Of a stretch of 64,000 nt of DNA, positions 352 to 64,000 are shown one piece after another; within the stretch, counting starts at the first letter, position 1; every line of letters begins with the position of its first letter. The stretch comes from a virus. A program made the position numbers and the translations under genes. Below the pieces are notes generated by a model. The model worked only from the letters and a program-made list of their open reading frames with translations. It was not told where the DNA came from and did not search any database. The stretch is from IMG/VR virus record IMGVR_UViG_3300045136_000267. The stretch is one strand, 5' to 3'.

Positions 352-3300
352 ATGCAGACATTAGCTAGGCCTGTTCAAGAACTTGAAGAATTGAATCCTG
401 ATACCTTTAAGTCTGTAGATACATCTCCAACGTTACCTACTATTACTGACATTCCCAAGAATTCTATAGCAGTAGATGACATTCAAGCAATCAGACATAA
501 AATCTTTGATAATGTACTTAAAACATTATCTTCTGCTCCAGCACACGCTTATGGTAATTATGTTCTTAAATTAGAGAATCTTAAATATGCTGACCCTGAT
601 AAGTTTTCTATTCAAGACGAAAGAGATGCAATTATTAAAGGTAATTCTCTTACTAGAAGACTAGTAGGCGATTATGTTCTTATTGATGCCAAGACTGGGA
701 AAGAGATAGCTAGAAGAAAGCAGTTAGTAGCTAGAGTACCTTATCTTACTAGTCATGGATCCTTCATTTTCAATGGAAATGCTTACAGTATTGCCAATCA
801 ACTACGTTTAAAGCCTGGCGTCTTCATACGTCTCCGTGGTGATGGTAATGCAGATACTTTCGTAAATACTGTCAAAGGATTGACTCATCATTATACCCTT
901 GACCCTGAAAAGGGTATATTCTACATGTCCTTTGGTAATGTAAATATTCCACTATTTACCGTTCTAAAAGCACTCAACGTCCCTGATGAAAAGATTCTAA
1001 GTGCTTGGGGTCAGAAACTATATGCTTCTAACGCCGCTGCCGGAGCTAAAGCTAACATTGCTAAATTATTTAAGAACAGATTATCTCCAGAACAGATAAA
1101 TCAAGCTCTTCCTAAACTATTAGAGAGCATGAAGTTAGATCCAACAGCTACCCAGCTAACTATTGGTATTCCTGCTACCCATGTCACTCCAGACGTAATG
1201 CTTGAAGCTACTAAGAAAATGCTAAAAGTATGGAAGGGAGAAGCAGAAGCTGATGAGCGTGATGCTTTACACTTCCAGAAAATAGCAGGAGTAGAACATT
1301 TAATTCCAGAATATGTATTCAGAGCACATCAAGGATTACGTAAGTTCATTCCTAGAGCTGTAAGAAAGAATTTCGATTTAAGCGTTATCCCTAGTAATTA
1401 TTATTGGACAGGCATCTCAGATTTACTTCTCGGTAGTGGCTTAGCCGAGATTTTGGAAGAAATTAATCCCACTGAGACCCTCGATAGACTATACAGAGTT
1501 ACTAAGTTAGGCGCCGGTGGTATTGAACAAGTAGAAGCCGTACCAGAGGAAGCTAGATCTGTACATCAGACCCACATGGGTTTTATAGATCCAGCAGTAA
1601 CAGGTAAGTTAAAGCGAGTAGGCGTAGATTTAAGACTTGCATATCTTACTAGGAGAGATGAGAACGGTAAACTTTATACAGTATTTAAAGATGTAAAGTC
1701 CGGTAAATTCGTATGGCGTTCTCCAGAAGATCTCATTAATGCCGTAGTAGTTTATCCTGGTGAAATGGATAATAAAGATAATTATGTATTGGGATCTAAG
1801 AACGGCAGAATTAGATATTTCAACAGAGAAGAAGTAGATTACGAACTACCTTATGGGGAACAATATTTCAATACAATTACTAATTTTCTACCTGCACAAG
1901 GAACAACCTTCCCCCAACGTATCATGATGGGTCAGCAAATGCATTTGCAGGCCCTTCCATTAATTAATGCTGAAGAACCTCTAGTTCAGGGGAAGCTACC
2001 TAATCAAGATAACTCTTTCCAAAGAGCTGCATATAAATATTACGGTGTAGTTAAAAGTGATGTAGATGGAATAGTAGAATCTGTAAGTCCTAATAGAATA
2101 GTTGTCAGAGACAAAAGATCTAATAAGAAAACTGTATACGAATTATACAATAATTTCCCTTTCAATAGAAAGACGTTCATTCATAACACCCCAGTAGTTA
2201 AAACAGGGGATGAAGTATACAAGAACCAATTATTAGCGACTTCTAATTTCTCCGATAAGAATGGCAATCCCGCTTTCGGATTAAATGCTTACATAGCATT
2301 TTTACCTTATCGTGGTTACAACTATGAAGATGCTTACGTGGTATCTGAATCTTTTGCTAAAAGATTAAACTCTGAACATATGTATCAAGAAACTCTGGAT
2401 ATAGCTCCAAACATAATCACTGGAAAAGATGCTTATAAAGCGGCGTTTCCAGGTAAGTATTCAGAGGAATTTTACAATAACTATGATGAAAATGGATTCT
2501 TAAAACCAGGTAGAAAAGCTATTAAAGGACAACCATTAATTTTAGCTGTAAAATCTGCAGATCCGGGTAGAATAGGAGCAAAAAAGAAGATACTTTCTGA
2601 TGCATCTATTATTTGGGATCATGAAAATCCTGGTGTAGTAATAGATACTCATAAAGGAAGAGACAATCTTTATATCAACATTAAGTCTAATTCTTTAGCA
2701 ATTGAAGGAGACAAGTTAACCGGTAGATTTGGTGACAAGGGTGTAATCGCTAGGATCATTCCTGATAGTGAAATGCCTAGAGATAGTCTAGGCAGACCCT
2801 TTGATTTACTAGTTAATCCTCTAGGACTAGCTACTAGAGGTAATATGGGGCAAATCTATGAGGCTGTTCTAGGTAAAATTGCCGCTAAAAATAAGAAACC
2901 TGTATTTGTTCCAGCCTTCATGAGCGACTATTACGTTTTTGCTGATAATATGTTGAAGGCCAATAGGGTTTCCCCCACAGATACTGTTTATGACCCAAAA
3001 TTTGGCACATATATTCCTAATGTTTTAACTGGATATAAATATGTGATGAAATTGCATCACATGGCAGAATCTAAGTTGCAAGAAAGAGAGACTGCTGAAT
3101 ATACAGCAGAAGACATGCCTGCTAGAGGAGGTAAGACAGGGGCAAAATATATAGGTTTCTTGGAATTGATGGGTATCTTAGGTCACAATGCTTTCAATGT
3201 TATTAGAGATGCCAAGTTTGTTAGAGGACAAAGAAATGACAGATTTTGGCTAGATTTCATGCGTGGTGCTACTCCCACAGTCAATACATCAACATTGGTT

Positions 3301-4755
3301 TATGATAAATTTGTAAACCTATTAAAAGCTGCAGGTATAAATATAGAAAGTAACAACGACACTTTGAATCTTTTCGCCCTTACAAACTCTGATATCGCTA
3401 ACCTGACTGCAGATAGGGTAATTAGAAATCCAAATACTGTTAAAGTATTACGTGATGATGTTAAGCCAATAACAGGCGGTTTATTTGATCCGACTATTAC
3501 TGGAGGTCTAGATGGTAGGCATTGGAGCTATTTTGAATTATCTGAACCATTTCCAAATCCAGTAATGGAAGATGTAATTCGTACATTATTGGATTTAACA
3601 GAGAAAGATTACATTGACATTCTAATAGGAAAGAAAACTCTTGAAGGTTCAAATAAATTAGGGCCAGAAGCCCTTAAGGAAGTCTTATCAGAATTTAATG
3701 TTGATAAAGAACTAGATACAGCTATTCGCAATTACAAAGTAGCTCCTGCTAGCAAAAAAAGTGCTTTGATAAAGAAGATTAGATATCTACGGGCTATAAA
3801 GCAAACTAATCAAAAGCCAGAAGAATGGTTCTGGACGAGAATGCCTATTATTCCACCAATCTTTCGTCCAGTCTCCTTAACTAATAAAGTAATAACGGTA
3901 GCTGATGTTAATGCTTTGTATCAAGATTTGTATGAAGCTAATGAAATATTAAATTCTCAGAAGAAATTCATGGAAAATCCATCAGAAGCTAGACTTGCTG
4001 TCTACAACGGCATGAAGGCTGTAGCAGGAATAGGTGATCCTATTCAAGTTAAACATAAGCAGCAGGGGTTAAGGGGTTTATTACAGCAGATAGTAGGTAC
4101 CAGGTCTAAAACAAGCTATGTAATGCGTAAGCTTATTGGTATAACTACTGACTTGGTAGGTAGAGCTGTAATCATTCCAAATCCTGCCTTGGATATAGAT
4201 CATGTAGGTATTCCCATAGAAATGGCCTGGACTTTATTCAGGCCAGTAATAATAAGAAATCTGACTAAACGCGGACTTTCTCTAGTAGATGCAATAAAAG
4301 CATATAATGATAAATCTAAATATGCAGTAGATGCGTTACTAGAAGAGATAAATAACAGGGTAGTTATAGTAAATAGAGCGCCAGTACTGCATAGATATGG
4401 TGTAATGGCATTTAAGCCAGTTCTTACAAAGAATAAAGTAGTAGAATTCAATCCTCAAATAACGTCAGCTTTTGGAGCAGACTTTGATGGTGATGCTGTT
4501 CAAGTACATCTTCCCATACTTGATGAAGCTCAAAAAGAAGCTAAGATGAAAATGCTACCATCAAAGAATTTATTCTCTTCTGCTAATTTTGGACTGTTAT
4601 ATCCTCCGATTAGAGAGTATGCTTTAGGTTTATGGCTGGCAACAGCTTACGAAGATAAAACTAAAAAACCTGTAAGGTTTAAATCTATTGGCGACCTACT
4701 TAAAGCATATAATAGAGGTGAAATTACAATAAATACGCCAGTAGAAATTGGTTAG
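352..4755 (+). CDS. Phage multi-subunit RNA polymerase: beta fused to the N-terminal (catalytic) half of beta'
   Basis: Beta motifs GYNYEDA, GDKLTGRFGDKG, NPLG..RGN.GQ, KLHHM and the C-terminal FVNLLKAAGINIE. These run directly into beta' motifs KPITGGLF, PIIPPIFRP, GRAVI, NRAPVLHR and the catalytic GADFDGD (4474-4494). Confidence 0.96.
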   Translation: MQTLARPVQELEELNPDTFKSVDTSPTLPTITDIPKNSIAVDDIQAIRHKIFDNVLKTLSSAPAHAYGNYVLKLENLKYADPDKFSIQDERDAIIKGNSLTRRLVGDYVLIDAKTGKEIARRKQLVARVPYLTSHGSFIFNGNAYSIANQLRLKPGVFIRLRGDGNADTFVNTVKGLTHHYTLDPEKGIFYMSFGNVNIPLFTVLKALNVPDEKILSAWGQKLYASNAAAGAKANIAKLFKNRLSPEQINQALPKLLESMKLDPTATQLTIGIPATHVTPDVMLEATKKMLKVWKGEAEADERDALHFQKIAGVEHLIPEYVFRAHQGLRKFIPRAVRKNFDLSVIPSNYYWTGISDLLLGSGLAEILEEINPTETLDRLYRVTKLGAGGIEQVEAVPEEARSVHQTHMGFIDPAVTGKLKRVGVDLRLAYLTRRDENGKLYTVFKDVKSGKFVWRSPEDLINAVVVYPGEMDNKDNYVLGSKNGRIRYFNREEVDYELPYGEQYFNTITNFLPAQGTTFPQRIMMGQQMHLQALPLINAEEPLVQGKLPNQDNSFQRAAYKYYGVVKSDVDGIVESVSPNRIVVRDKRSNKKTVYELYNNFPFNRKTFIHNTPVVKTGDEVYKNQLLATSNFSDKNGNPAFGLNAYIAFLPYRGYNYEDAYVVSESFAKRLNSEHMYQETLDIAPNIITGKDAYKAAFPGKYSEEFYNNYDENGFLKPGRKAIKGQPLILAVKSADPGRIGAKKKILSDASIIWDHENPGVVIDTHKGRDNLYINIKSNSLAIEGDKLTGRFGDKGVIARIIPDSEMPRDSLGRPFDLLVNPLGLATRGNMGQIYEAVLGKIAAKNKKPVFVPAFMSDYYVFADNMLKANRVSPTDTVYDPKFGTYIPNVLTGYKYVMKLHHMAESKLQERETAEYTAEDMPARGGKTGAKYIGFLELMGILGHNAFNVIRDAKFVRGQRNDRFWLDFMRGATPTVNTSTLVYDKFVNLLKAAGINIESNNDTLNLFALTNSDIANLTADRVIRNPNTVKVLRDDVKPITGGLFDPTITGGLDGRHWSYFELSEPFPNPVMEDVIRTLLDLTEKDYIDILIGKKTLEGSNKLGPEALKEVLSEFNVDKELDTAIRNYKVAPASKKSALIKKIRYLRAIKQTNQKPEEWFWTRMPIIPPIFRPVSLTNKVITVADVNALYQDLYEANEILNSQKKFMENPSEARLAVYNGMKAVAGIGDPIQVKHKQQGLRGLLQQIVGTRSKTSYVMRKLIGITTDLVGRAVIIPNPALDIDHVGIPIEMAWTLFRPVIIRNLTKRGLSLVDAIKAYNDKSKYAVDALLEEINNRVVIVNRAPVLHRYGVMAFKPVLTKNKVVEFNPQITSAFGADFDGDAVQVHLPILDEAQKEAKMKMLPSKNLFSSANFGLLYPPIREYALGLWLATAYEDKTKKPVRFKSIGDLLKAYNRGEITINTPVEIG

Positions 4756-4778: not shown

Positions 4779-5372
4779 ATGAAAGGTTCTCATTTATTTC
4801 AATTAGATCCTAATGCTTTCATGAAGGCTTTAGCTAAATTAGCTTCCGAAAAGAACGCCTTTGTTCCTCCTGGTGGCGGTGCTCCTCCTGGTGCTCCTCC
4901 TGGAGGTATGCCTATGGATCCTGCCATGATGGGTATGGCAGCTCCTCCCGGTGGTGGTGCTACTCCAATGGATCCTGCCATGATGGGTATGGCTCCTCCG
5001 CCTGGAGGTATGCCTATGGATCCATCAATGATGGGTGGCGGGGCTCCTCCTGGTGGAGGCGCTCCTCCTCCGATGGGCGGTGGGCTTCCTCCGGAATTGA
5101 TGCAGTTATTAGCTTCTCCGCCCGGCGGTGCTCCTGAGTCCACTGATAATTCTGGCGCTCCTGGCTCTGAAGTCGGTGAGGAGCAAGGTACCGGTACTTC
5201 TACCAGTACTCTAATGGAAATGAAACCCGAAGAGTTCAAAACCTTAGTGATTGATGCTGTAGAAAAAGGTTTCGCTAATTCTGCAGATTCAATGTTAAGG
5301 GTACTAGAAGATATTAGAGATGCTTTAACTAATAAGGCTGGTACTTCTAGAGGCGAGAACGAGAACCTCTAA
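4779..5372 (+). CDS. Pro/Gly/Met-rich low-complexity protein between the RNAP genes
   Basis: AGGAG RBS, three PMDP(A/S)MMG repeats and several GGAPP repeats; tightly packed with both neighbours. Confidence 0.8.
   Translation: MKGSHLFQLDPNAFMKALAKLASEKNAFVPPGGGAPPGAPPGGMPMDPAMMGMAAPPGGGATPMDPAMMGMAPPPGGMPMDPSMMGGGAPPGGGAPPPMGGGLPPELMQLLASPPGGAPESTDNSGAPGSEVGEEQGTGTSTSTLMEMKPEEFKTLVIDAVEKGFANSADSMLRVLEDIRDALTNKAGTSRGENENL
4870..5140 (+). repeat. Coding repeats (atggatcc..ccatgatgggt x3; gctcctcc(t)ggtgg)
   Basis: Imperfect direct repeats visible in the DNA, with locally high GC. Confidence 0.8.
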
Positions 5373-10972: not shown

Positions 10973-12224
10973 TAAATATCTTGATAGTGTCAATAATCTA
11001 GTAGATCAAGGTCATTCTCCAACTGAGGCTTTGAAGAAGGTAGCCGAGGAGAATAATCTATCCCCAGAATACATTCGTTCAGTTGGAATTGCTTACAATA
11101 GTGGACTTACGAACTATTATATTCATCATGAGAAGAGAGCTACTGCATTATATGACACAGAACTTTGTGAGCCTGAGAAAGTTATAAAAGAGCTTTTTAC
11201 TCCTAGAAGTAAGAAGGCAGAAGACGTAGATCCTTTCTATCTATATTCTCCTGCCTTTCATGACATCGGTAGATATCGTCCGCCCGAGCCAGTAGTTAAA
11301 GCTGCTGAGTTCAGATCTGTAGAATCTATCTCTAAAGAGATAAATACGCTTATTCAATACAAACGTAAAGAAAAAGAGATTTTAGAATCTGAACTTAAAA
11401 TGATATATGAATTAGTAGATGCTGATCTGAGAAAGATAGCAAGCTACTACGAACGTGATGGTGCTATTGATCCTCATATAGTAAATGAAACTTGCAAGAC
11501 TTTGAATATAGTGTCAGGACCAATATTAAAGGCAGCAGAAGTTCCTGATAATAAACAGTATTATTCTAAGAATACTACCTTCTCTAATAAATTGGAACCT
11601 TATAGATATATTATAAGAATAAATGAGTTCACTAAGAAAGCTAATATAATTAGAGATAAAATCCAAGTATTAGATAATGAATTAGCTATTATTGACAAGA
11701 AATTAGAAGGATTTAAAAAAAAACTACCTAACCAGTCAGAAAACGAATTAAATTCAGATAAACAAACAAAAACGGCACAAGCAACACCCCCTTCATCACA
11801 AATAAAACCTCCTTCATTAGAAGAAACATATTCTAAATTTGAAGAATCTCGTAAAAAAATATTTGATTTCGCGGCTTCAACTTTCGATCAAGAATCTATA
11901 TCCTATCCTGGTAGTTTTACTCCAGTAGATAAAGCTCAACCAGAGCATAGTAAAGATATATTAAAAGCCAATGCAAATGTAGTTAAAGTTATTTTAACTA
12001 ATTTAATGTTAAACGATCCTATAATCTCAAAATATGAACCAGAAAAAGTACTAGATGCTTATTCAAAATTAGCTGCTCTAGCCCCAGCCGCCATGACTCG
12101 CGAAGTTATCATGGTTCCTTTACTACAGAAGATATTAGAAACTGGTACATTAGATCCGCTAGATGTAGCTAATCTTATTAAGTTTAACCTCCAGATTGCA
12201 AAGCACATTGAGAACGTATCTTGA
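10926..12224 (+). CDS. Hypothetical coiled-coil head-associated protein
   Basis: 432 aa with K-x-A motifs (EKRA, SKKA, VKAA, RKIA, TKTA). Confidence 0.55.
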   Translation: MAQVPIITERTVEKLSKYLDSVNNLVDQGHSPTEALKKVAEENNLSPEYIRSVGIAYNSGLTNYYIHHEKRATALYDTELCEPEKVIKELFTPRSKKAEDVDPFYLYSPAFHDIGRYRPPEPVVKAAEFRSVESISKEINTLIQYKRKEKEILESELKMIYELVDADLRKIASYYERDGAIDPHIVNETCKTLNIVSGPILKAAEVPDNKQYYSKNTTFSNKLEPYRYIIRINEFTKKANIIRDKIQVLDNELAIIDKKLEGFKKKLPNQSENELNSDKQTKTAQATPPSSQIKPPSLEETYSKFEESRKKIFDFAASTFDQESISYPGSFTPVDKAQPEHSKDILKANANVVKVILTNLMLNDPIISKYEPEKVLDAYSKLAALAPAAMTREVIMVPLLQKILETGTLDPLDVANLIKFNLQIAKHIENVS

Positions 12225-33955: not shown

Positions 33956-34047
33956 TTTCGTTTCTTAGACGTTTCTCCGACCAGGGCTGATAGTTGTGCA
34001 ATGCCTGCGAAGAGGCTTCGTTTCTTCGACGACGACCGGAGGGTATT

Positions 34048-61364: not shown

Positions 61365-61406
61365 GAAAGGGAGGTCTGGATCTACCAGGCCTCCCTTTCT
61401 ATTTAT
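61365..61406 (+). terminator. Rho-independent terminator
   Basis: GAAAGGGAGGTCTGG-atcta-CCAGGCCTCCCTTTC followed by TATTT. Confidence 0.8.
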
Positions 61407-61443
61407 ATAGATATTTTAACTTAAATTACTTCACACTTGTATC

Positions 61444-62181
61444 ATGACCTGCGTTCCCAAACTGACGGAAGGCAATACAAAATTAGGTAAGTTGTATAAC
61501 TGGTCTATTCCAGCTAATCCTGAAATTTGTATTGCTGCTACAAAGTCTTGCAGTGCAGCTTGTTATGCAAAGAAACATTTCTATAAACTAGAAGTAATAC
61601 AAAAAGTTCATAAAAATAATTATATTTCATCTTTATCAGATTCATTTTCTATACAAATGATTTCAATTATTCAGAATATAAAGCCTAAAGTACTTAGAAT
61701 ACATACCTCTGGAGATTTCTATTCCGATAAATACGTGAAGAAATGGATTGATATTATCTGTGCTTGTCCCAATACCAAGTTCTTCACTTATACACGGGTA
61801 TGGGAGAAAGAGTACTTACTATCTTATTTAAAAGTACTAAATAGCCTCAGTAATATGATCCTTTGGTGTTCTATAGATATAGATAACTATAAGAAATGGA
61901 ACAACAACTTAGCAGCTACATTCAGTAATGTCGCGGTAATGCTGAACGATTTAGGAGAAAGCTTTATTTGCAGTGAAGTAAATGCGACAGTAGCTTTCTT
62001 AGTAAAGAAGAATAGAATTAAGAAAATAAACTCGGCAATAGTATGTCCTAAAGAGAATGGAATCAATAAAAATATGACCTGCCATAAGTGTAAAATCTGT
62101 TGGAACAAGGATGTCTTACAGAAGGTTAAAATGAAACTATGTTCAACACCTTCAGAGTCGATATTGACCCCGAATTCATAG
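61444..62181 (+). CDS. GP88-like Cys-cluster protein
   Basis: GNTKLG, C-x6-C-x3-CY, RIHTSGDF, YTR and CP...TC.KC..C. Confidence 0.75.
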   Translation: MTCVPKLTEGNTKLGKLYNWSIPANPEICIAATKSCSAACYAKKHFYKLEVIQKVHKNNYISSLSDSFSIQMISIIQNIKPKVLRIHTSGDFYSDKYVKKWIDIICACPNTKFFTYTRVWEKEYLLSYLKVLNSLSNMILWCSIDIDNYKKWNNNLAATFSNVAVMLNDLGESFICSEVNATVAFLVKKNRIKKINSAIVCPKENGINKNMTCHKCKICWNKDVLQKVKMKLCSTPSESILTPNS

Positions 62182-62936
62182 ATATATTAGAAGCTAAACT
62201 ATGTGAAGAAGATAAAGAAATGGATTATTTCTCTGTGGTAAGGGTAGGAGATAGATTCAATGTAGGAGGAGTTGGTAGTTTTGTTAGTAATAAGCTATAT
62301 GGCGCTGCAAGGAAGATAAAGTACTTTAAATTGATGGTAAAAAGAGTTAACTCTAGAGTAATAACTCAACTAATCGCATATCAACCAGATTTTCTGGCTA
62401 AGATACGAAATCCAACAATAATCGGAATAGATCTAGGAGTTAATAGGACAATAGTAACATCTGCTAATGAAGTATTTGAATTAGATTTTGGTGTAAAGCT
62501 AAATATAGCAAGATTATGCCGATTAAAGCGAAAGCTTAGAAATAAGCAGAAGGATTCAAGGGGTTATTTAAAGTTAATAGATAAGATAAACAAAACGAAG
62601 AAGATAATAAAAGAAGGCATAAGAAATTGGATATCTAGAACCGTAAGGCAGATAAAGACTAAACATAAGAAGGCTAAGTCTACTTTAATTCTAGCAACAG
62701 AAAGTATTACAAATAAACCAAACTTTATTCTTAAATACAGTTATCTCTGTCTTAAACGTGCTTGCTTGAAGAGAAGGATTCTGTTACTAGATACTTCTCC
62801 AGCAGTGCAAAATAATCCAGAAGCGTTACCTATACCCATTAAATATGAAAGAGATATCTATGCTGCAATAAAGATTGCTAAGAAAGCAGCTAATGCTCTG
62901 AAAGATAGTAATCCCAGGAGTAAATTCGAGAAGTAA
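62139..62936 (+). CDS. Shortened TnpB-like RuvC protein
   Basis: RuvC-I IGIDLGVN..IVTS, basic helices, candidate RuvC-II LATE and RuvC-III RDIYAAIKI; no CxxC finger. Confidence 0.65.
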   Translation: MFNTFRVDIDPEFIDILEAKLCEEDKEMDYFSVVRVGDRFNVGGVGSFVSNKLYGAARKIKYFKLMVKRVNSRVITQLIAYQPDFLAKIRNPTIIGIDLGVNRTIVTSANEVFELDFGVKLNIARLCRLKRKLRNKQKDSRGYLKLIDKINKTKKIIKEGIRNWISRTVRQIKTKHKKAKSTLILATESITNKPNFILKYSYLCLKRACLKRRILLLDTSPAVQNNPEALPIPIKYERDIYAAIKIAKKAANALKDSNPRSKFEK

Positions 62937-62939
62937 CTA

Positions 62940-62968
62940 TTGACCGTTACTTCTATCTGATGTAACAT
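62940..62968 (+). promoter_or_regulatory. Putative sigma-70 promoter
   Basis: TTGACC-N17-TAACAT immediately upstream of the structured region. Confidence 0.55.
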
Positions 62969-62974
62969 TCCATA

Positions 62975-63632
62975 TAGAGATGATGAGGAGATAAAGAGGT
63001 CATTCAGCGAGAATAGTCGTACGACTGGTGAATGCTACTAGACCTCATTCTCCCTCAATTATTCTACTTCTTTGGGCCACAGTGAGCTGGCAAAGGCTTC
63101 CTGACGCAGCAGATCAGGAGGTGAGAGTTCGCAGCCTGTCGCGGCGAGTGCCACCTACTACTCAGATTGTAGGGGACGGGTCTACGGGCGGTCTGGCGGT
63201 GTATGTAGCCGAGTTTTCATTCGCGGAGTGTCTCGGATAGCGCTGTCTCAGATAACAGAGAATTGCAGCCAGAGTGACTGCTAGTAGTTATTTTTAATTA
63301 ATCAACCTAGTCTCTGTTATTCATGACGGAATCAAAAACTCTGTACCGTTCGCCTGGAATCGCCTAGAAATCGTGTACATGTAACCGAACGTTTGAGGTA
63401 GTGTACACGAGGCGATGTAGCCGTGGGAAATTCCAGACATGCGCTAAGACGGTAGACTCAAACGCCTAACCCCTTTCTTAGGTTGCCTATAAGATAGATT
63501 AAAAGCATTTCTTGCGATAAAACCAGGAAGTTACCCCAGAAGGGTGACGACCTGCATAAGAATCGCAGCTGTTAAGTATTTTTTCAGGTCTTTTAGAAAA
63601 AGTGAAAAAAATACCTGAAGGTACTTAATAGA
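62975..63632 (+). ncRNA. Candidate large structured non-coding RNA, family unknown
   Basis: Non-coding, GC-enriched, many nested stems and a possible pseudoknot; strand inferred from the promoter and G-U pairs. Confidence 0.55.
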
Positions 63633-63712
63633 CATAGAGATACCATGTAAACAGCTATCTAAAATCCAATATCTATAAGATACTTCTGGATATATTAAGA
63701 TAGAGAAATAGA

Positions 63713-63798
63713 TATAGAGATATAGAAATATAAATTATAGAGATATCTATAGAGATATAGAAATATAAATTATAGAGATATCTATAGAGATATAGAAA
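63713..63798. repeat. 35-bp tandem repeat (about 2.5 copies) within an AT-rich low-complexity tract
   Basis: TATAGAGATATAGAAATATAAATTATAGAGATATC at 63713 and 63748, partial copy at 63783. Confidence 0.85.
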
Positions 63799-64000
63799 AT
63801 ACAGATTATAGATATATTAAGATAAAGATATAGAAGTATAGATATAGAACTATAGAGATGTTCTACAGAGATATAGAAGATAAATGATATCAATAGACTA
63901 TAAAGATATAGAATACAAGTAAGTAATATCTATAGAGATATAGAAGATAAAGAATCTTTATAAAGATAACAAAGATAGAAGATGTAAAGATCTCTGTAGA

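Follow-up and report, generated by a model that had tools for sequence, protein, structure and literature searches.

The stretch of DNA that follows a small TnpB-like gene near one end of a hot-spring phage contig most probably encodes a functional structured RNA, a reading to which we assign about three chances in four. The RNA gene would measure ~0.65-0.7 kb and lie on the + strand, from ~62975 to at least 63632 and probably to 63675. It would be transcribed from a sigma-70-like promoter just past the stop codon of the TnpB-like gene, and its folded parts under constraint would be a 5' hairpin domain, two GC-rich cores and a terminal hairpin with its tail, joined by freely evolving linkers. 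A preliminary description of positions 62975-63632 had proposed a new large phage non-coding RNA, and as a probable reading this is upheld by block-wise selection, a tRNA-like GC content, a conserved promoter, one covarying hairpin and the lack of any Rfam match. Transcription, like protein binding and any guide function, we infer. Whether the RNA is the partner of the adjacent 265-aa TnpB-like protein is a more tentative matter, which we place somewhat below even odds.

The window, i.e. the whole 64,000-nt stretch of DNA that was analysed, corresponds, in reverse complement, to one end of an 86.9-kb IMG/VR virus record (~44% complete), and at least 14 studies of hot-spring and microbial-mat metagenomes contain the same DNA. 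Upstream of the flagged stretch lie co-directional genes, namely a RecA-like gene, several unknowns, DUF932 and GP88, followed by the 265-aa ORF; downstream there is an AT-rich tandem-repeat region which continues beyond the end of the window. When ORFs of at least 75 aa are masked, 62937-64000 is the longest segment without a gene on either strand, in agreement with the earlier claim that this is the largest non-coding stretch, and the two longer gaps between + strand ORFs in the window contain - strand genes.

The stretch is also richer in GC than the genes, as had been noted: 62975-63632 shows a GC content of 0.46 against 0.33 in the neighbouring gene and 0.35 in the window. Its core, 63081-63290, reaches 0.56 (0.557), compared with 0.547 for the phage's own tRNA and 0.352 for the window. 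High GC in AT-rich thermophiles is a classic mark of structural RNA genes. No second non-coding GC-rich island was found in the 87-kb contig, the remaining islands being Pro/Ala/Gly-rich coding segments or the one tRNA. Two of these, at 4779-5372 of the window and at G000:C1:83450-83650, are GC-rich, Pro/Gly/Ala/Met-rich low-complexity segments in ORFs, with repeats of the GAPPGGMPMDP type. The other GC-rich islands were considered as sister RNAs and rejected, being low-complexity coding segments.

In order to compare strains, exact look-ups of seven variants of the 265-aa protein were performed, which yielded 8 usable strain variants of the locus with 88-100% identity. The rates given below thus come from 7-8 strains of the same phage, and from 6 strains for the tail block. 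The four-fold sites of the neighbouring TnpB-like gene, of which 23 of 76 are variable (0.30), served as the neutral rate, while codon positions 1+2 of this gene vary at 0.062. The five constrained blocks (Table 1) vary at 0.00-0.045, which is below these codon positions, and the linkers between them at 0.29-0.65. Divergence is normal in the neutral linkers within the element, so the blocks owe their invariance to selection and not to youth; this selection is the strongest evidence obtained here. The constrained element extends past 63632, where the preliminary description had ended it, to ~63675. On the other side, the last 170 nt of the TnpB-like ORF display ordinary variation, with 5-9 variable sites per 60 nt.

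Table 1. Features of the locus, with the number of variable positions among strains and the probability of so few under the neutral rate
Feature	Position	Strand	Description	Variable positions	P if neutral
TnpB-like gene P0001, 265 aa	62139-62936	+	RuvC motifs GIDLG (D98), ATES (E188), ERDIYAA (D239)		
Perfect 9-bp hairpin AGAAGTAAC/GTTACTTCT	62929-62954	+	straddles the stop codon of the TnpB-like gene		
Sigma-70-like promoter TTGACC-17-TAACAT	62940-62968	+	predicted RNA start near 62975		
5' nested hairpin domain	62982-63047	+	GAGGTC/GACCTC around AGCG/UGCU and UAGUC/GACUG	3/66	2e-7
Pyrimidine-rich linker	63048-63080	+	no stable predicted helix; neutral evolution	11/33	neutral
Core block 1	63081-63290	+	hairpins CUUCCUGA/UCAGGAGG, CCUAC/GUAGG, CCGAG/CUCGG	9/210	1.5e-21
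AT-rich variable loop (loop B, GC 0.20)	63291-63310	+	site B of the mobile hairpin	13/20	neutral
Core block 2	63311-63483	+	CUGGAAU/AUUCCAG around the 10-bp hairpin UCGUGUACAU/GUGUACACGA	2/173	2.4e-24
3' variable block	63484-63565	+	covarying hairpin 63524-63536/63542-63555; mobile-hairpin site C (L014, L022)	24/82	neutral
Long AT-rich terminal hairpin	63566-63632	+	22 bp in two segments; no U-run after it	3/67	1.8e-7
AT-rich tail, 43 nt	63633-63675	+	invariant; without predicted pairing; starts with iteron-like CATAGAGATAC	0/43 (6 strains)	2e-7
Iteron-like array of direct TATAGAGATAT repeats	63676-64000	+	GC 0.22; spacing 12/23/35 nt; exceeds the window		

The complementary segments listed in the preliminary description were all found where it had placed them. 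They include the pairs ATAACAGAGA/TCTCTGTTAT at 63252/63311 and TCGTGTACA/TGTACACGA at 63371/63402, the pseudoknot candidate CGTTTGAG/CTCAAACG at 63390/63457 and the terminal stem, which spans 63569-63631. The whole stretch folds better than dinucleotide shuffles (20 per strand), with a z-score of -4.83 on the + strand and -2.62 on the - strand. By domain, z is uneven: -1.6 for the 5' domain, +1.3 for the core piece 63135-63250, which in isolation does not fold above shuffles, -2.5 for 63320-63480 and -4.8 for the 3' domain. Hence thermodynamics by itself is only moderate support for the core. Helix probabilities are 0.94-1.00 in the 5' domain and 0.9-0.98 in core block 2, and core block 1 also contains the 5' arm of a helix at 63251-63321. 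The long-range helices of the single-sequence MFE structure are broken by natural substitutions. Concerning the candidate pseudoknot, in which the core block 2 loop CGUUUGAG is complementary to 63457-63464, about 3 perfect 8-bp complements of this kind are expected by chance per 650 nt; it sits in an invariant block, and most long-range pair columns are likewise without variation. The hairpin that straddles the stop codon is followed by no U-run, so it is no obvious terminator.

The -35 element of the promoter (TTGAC) is invariant in all variants. One variant (L014) has TAATAT, and in L009, a longer sister-strain contig, an insert at the promoter site gives TTGACT-18-TATAAT in the alignment. 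Base-pair changes were then counted on both strands. In the hairpin at 63524-63555 a compensatory change from C-G to U-A at 63534:63544 occurs in three sequences, together with a change from U·G to U-A at 63532:63546, and a second compensatory pair (62948:62966) belongs to a leader hairpin that precedes the RNA start. Another eleven changes are one-sided; on the + strand they preserve pairing as G·U, where the - strand would have A·C mismatches; in core block 1, several substitutions are G·U-compatible on the + strand. Over all paired positions, substitutions on the + strand keep pairing in 13 cases and break it in 20, the latter mostly in spurious long-range helices, against 9 and 28 on the - strand. 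Of the 201 predicted pairs, 176 are invariant across strains. With relatives confined to one phage lineage, covariation has little to draw on: one hairpin covaries, and the overall score of 0.030, versus 0.026 for shuffles, is uninformative at this diversity. The base-pair changes are only suggestive as evidence for an RNA on the + strand. No reads fell on 61400-64000 in two raw-read metatranscriptomes and one RNA contig set, in which the phage was not shown to be present.

Searches for families and relatives were next considered. With Rfam 15 at gathering thresholds, the window gives no more than one tRNA, and the stretch matches no family either there or at E<=10, where 2 kb and 761 nt of sequence returned nothing but chance-level snoR38, tsr26 and Plastid-ndhJ. 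The novelty proposed for the RNA therefore stands and, as far as family models can tell, it belongs to no catalogued family. The earlier remark that it is no tmRNA, RNase P or intron core agrees with the absence of any such Rfam match, group I and II introns included. OLE, HEARO, raiA, the omega-RNA-type IS605-orfB and RAGATH-18 are likewise without match at E<=10, and ARAGORN returned nothing on the stretch. The suggestion of a GOLLD/ROOL-scale RNA did not hold as regards membership, which is excluded at the level of sequence and structure models. No relatives of the RNA were found by blastn against phages and plasmids, and core-pattern scans of viral, metagenome and genome contigs returned the same phage only, plus chance matches of 19-21 nt. 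For the protein, tblastn on phages, a search for related loci, a search of 5.8 billion clusters and HMMER on 1.84 billion representatives led to its own cluster only (identity of at least 90%). In the collections searched, the RNA and the neighbouring protein thus appear to have no relative outside one phage lineage. Synteny was followed through GP88, whose nearest relative is 34% identical and not syntenic, and through the RecA-like gene, which led only to a near-identical contig ending short of the locus. The preliminary description had also envisaged a variable guide segment matching host or phage DNA; the linker at 63048-63080, which as a guide-like segment is a possible and speculative candidate, has no match elsewhere in the 87-kb phage contig (14 nt, at most one mismatch). 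The tail after the terminal hairpin shows no target in the phage contig beyond its similarity to the repeats, and its 19-mer is absent from 185,579 genomes. No published description of the RNA was found in the literature.

The adjacent 265-aa protein matches the NCBIfam guided_TnpB profile with an E-value of 3.8e-8, residues 79-193 aligning to positions 181-298 of 389, at 33 bits versus a curated cut-off of 100. It also matches the phrog_506 transposase (7e-10) and Pfam OrfB_IS605 (0.003), and its top feature matches in the ESM Atlas are all TnpB/Cas12f-TNB families. The seven variants are 95-99% identical and the D-E-D triad is invariant in them. On these sequence grounds, the protein is TnpB-like and under purifying selection. 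TnpB proteins carry a REC/WED N-terminal lobe of ~180 aa and a C-terminal CxxC...CxxC zinc finger. Here the RuvC D-E-D triad is present, but neither a full REC/WED lobe nor a zinc finger is: there are only ~78 residues ahead of the segment whose alignment begins at profile position 181, and of the zinc finger a degenerate form is left, with two Cys only (C204, C209) in the C-terminal part. An AlphaFold2 model built from the 7-sequence alignment reached a pLDDT of 42, too poor for use, and a PDB sequence search gave no match. The start of the TnpB-like gene overlaps the upstream ORF, so that the flagged stretch is the sole non-coding DNA beside this gene.

Downstream of the RNA, 12 of the 17 window matches of the 11-nt motif TATAGAGATAT lie at 63713-63941, all on the + strand. 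TRF reports periods of 35 and 116, with 64-84% matches at several periods, and in L009 the array is ~350 nt long (11600-11950). Same-strand direct repeats, helical phase and an AT-rich region, as in an iteron-type origin, are all found here, and the array at 63676-64000 may be an origin or a region where a regulator binds at multiple sites. It is also a point at which many assemblies break off. A mini-array of the CRISPR/TranC type was considered and rejected, given the motif spacing of 12/23/35 nt, the same composition of the intervening sequence and the absence of unique spacers. Two iteron-like 9-mers, TATAGAGAT (62973-62981) and ATAGAGATA (63634-63642), flank the RNA unit in direct orientation; the former lies at the predicted transcription start and its first bases vary between strains. 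After the array, L009:12107-19882 carries at least 22 paralogous ORFs in a tandem, co-directional series, with lengths of 100-125 aa and identities of 20-39%; all begin with MKV, and PHROG gave no match to any of them. A 320-nt tandem DNA repeat lies inside this paralog array, at 17472-18448 of L009.

Strains differ in whether they carry a mobile hairpin of 30-62 nt at three sites in the RNA locus, all of which fall in neutral parts; at site B it is inserted or substituted in L003, L014 and L016. Its core is GCGAAGAGGCTTTGTTTCTTCGAC, extended in the long form by a GTGACG..CGTCAC hairpin whose loop varies. Copies were seen at L009:10808-10860, L003:11160-11225, L014:3015-3045 and 3250-3315, and L016:1430-1465. 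A further copy in the window, at 33999-34030, occupies an intergenic spacer 20 nt before a ribosome-binding site. The candidates for this hairpin are a terminator cassette, a miniature transposable element or a small RNA.

How the RNA might act can be approached from its neighbour. TnpB-family proteins use an RNA encoded beside their gene (PMC13622181), and the stretch was for this reason taken as the putative RNA gene of the TnpB-like protein. In its most likely role the RNA, or at least its 5' domain, would be the cognate RNA of this miniature protein and would supply the scaffold, perhaps also the DNA-recognition segment, of an RNA-rich ribonucleoprotein. The scaffold or guide role put forward in the preliminary description is consistent with the adjacent position and plausible from position only. 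A bolder form of this proposal, which we regard as unlikely, is an RNA-dominated minimal TnpB ribonucleoprotein in which a 265-aa RuvC core is joined by a ~0.65-kb RNA supplying the lost REC-lobe and zinc-finger architecture, so that the principle of IscB and its omega-RNA would be taken much further. Such a particle might act on the neighbouring iteron-like array or on a target in the host.

Other explanations of the locus have to be weighed against partnership with the protein. The RNA could be a large structured RNA in its own right, comparable to GOLLD, ROOL or OLE, which merely adjoins the TnpB-like gene, for instance if the RNA gene was there first and a TnpB element later inserted next to it. 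We hold this to be rather unlikely, though a serious possibility. Its size and multi-block architecture are comparable to those of the large ornate RNAs (PMC12286853, PMC5737381). Moreover, a promoter of its own follows the stop codon, no extra constraint is seen inside the 3' end of the ORF, and the constraint on the core is above that usual for a simple protein-binding scaffold. However, an independent RNA would leave a functional TnpB-like protein without a visible RNA gene, and no match to GOLLD, ROOL or OLE was found. GOLLD and ROOL often adjoin tRNA genes, and this RNA does not. It is quite unlikely, in our estimate, that the locus is a replication-origin module, in which the promoter would drive a folded pre-primer or regulatory RNA, similar to ColE1 RNA II or to T7/T4 origins, into the iteron array, with this AT-rich array as the unwinding and initiator-binding region. 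An origin primer RNA had been among the earlier suggestions, and the layout does fit: the promoter, the 0.65-kb RNA, the 43-nt invariant tail and a 350-bp array (GC 0.22) with same-strand repeats spaced by 12/23/35 nt follow one another, the 9-mers at 62973-81 and 63634-42 bracket the RNA, and the locus comes after the RecA-like, DUF932 and GP88 genes. The GC skew does not fit, as it is positive on both sides of the locus in L009, without a turn (a weak test, all genes being co-directional). Furthermore, an initiator gene was not found, and a primer RNA leaves the near-invariance over ~450 nt unexplained.

A DNA-level element without RNA function, such as a packaging site, a regulatory protein-binding region or a recombination hotspot, appears very improbable. 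Invariance with few compensatory changes would also be expected from dense protein-DNA contacts, and many assemblies end just downstream. The contig breaks near the locus are however due to the tandem repeats, GC richness and dense hairpins are not required of DNA sites in an AT-rich genome, and the observed changes are compatible with wobble pairing on just one of the strands. Barely credible is the idea that the stretch is recent foreign GC-rich DNA, or a small unrecognised protein gene, and looks conserved only through youth. Its GC does depart from that of the genome, but all strains carry the stretch, the neutral linkers within it have diverged normally, and it has no match in the genome, plasmid, phage and metagenome collections. 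The sole ORF within it, of 70 aa at 63028-63240, was rejected as a gene: it is without family, ribosome-binding site or gene-caller support, and its would-be third positions are constrained, varying at ~0.07 and not at 0.28 by our own count.

If the RNA is real, it would add to the large structured RNAs a new family from thermophilic phages, and it would be among the few large RNAs whose neighbour suggests a testable partner. If it is indeed the partner of the 265-aa protein, the two would be the smallest protein and the largest RNA known in the TnpB/Cas12 lineage. Such a pair would bear on how far RNA replaces protein domains in RNA-guided enzymes, on the domestication of TnpB by phages and on how very small genome-targeting proteins can be designed.

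Compared with known systems, the resemblance to ColE1 RNA II and to the transcription-primed origins of T7 and T4 lies in a promoter ~0.6 kb upstream of an AT-rich region and in a long folded transcript, but here the GC skew does not turn, sequence is not shared and evidence of RNase H-type processing is absent. If the locus were part of an origin instead, it would be a phage counterpart of the RNA-primed plasmid origins. With GOLLD, ROOL and OLE the element shares a 0.6-0.8-kb multi-domain RNA, and it is phage-borne like GOLLD and ROOL; in contrast, it has no covariance-model match to them, does not lie beside tRNA genes and occurs in one hot-spring phage lineage so far.

Known TnpB and TldR scaffolds are ~100-230 nt long, with a pseudoknot/triplex core followed by a 9-16-nt guide, and canonical omega-RNAs overlap the 3' end of tnpB. 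Regarding the omega-RNA/reRNA of IS200/IS605 and IS607 TnpB and the TldR gRNA, the likeness is that the RNA lies on the same strand, immediately 3' of a TnpB-family gene. This is the placement found here, with 62936 as the last position of the gene and 62982 as the first of the constrained blocks, on the + strand. The RNA is moreover structured and conserved, a hairpin domain being followed by a linker without stable predicted pairing, at the place that a guide would occupy. On the other hand, at 0.65-0.7 kb it is at least 3 times larger, and overlap with the 3' end of the ORF is lacking, the promoter coming after the stop and only the 9-bp hairpin straddling it. There is furthermore no tnpA, no transposon end, no Rfam match of the omega type and no target found, and the neighbouring protein, with 265 aa and no zinc finger, is far smaller. 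The RNAs of TnpB and TldR have their genes right next to the protein genes, on the downstream side, and that of Efa1TldR consists of a 97-nt scaffold and a 9-nt guide (PMC13622181). The 5' domain and linker of the present RNA (62982-63080) are compatible in size with a TnpB scaffold, and no feature marks a triplex or a guide in them.

The IscB omega-RNA (HEARO) is alike in concept only, as a small RuvC-type protein is paired with a large RNA that replaces the REC lobe. The protein family differs, IscB having HNH and PLMP domains, and HEARO, which has no match here, lies upstream of its gene and measures ~200-300 nt. If the link to the 265-aa protein holds, the RNA described here would be an extreme variant of the TnpB/omega-RNA theme.
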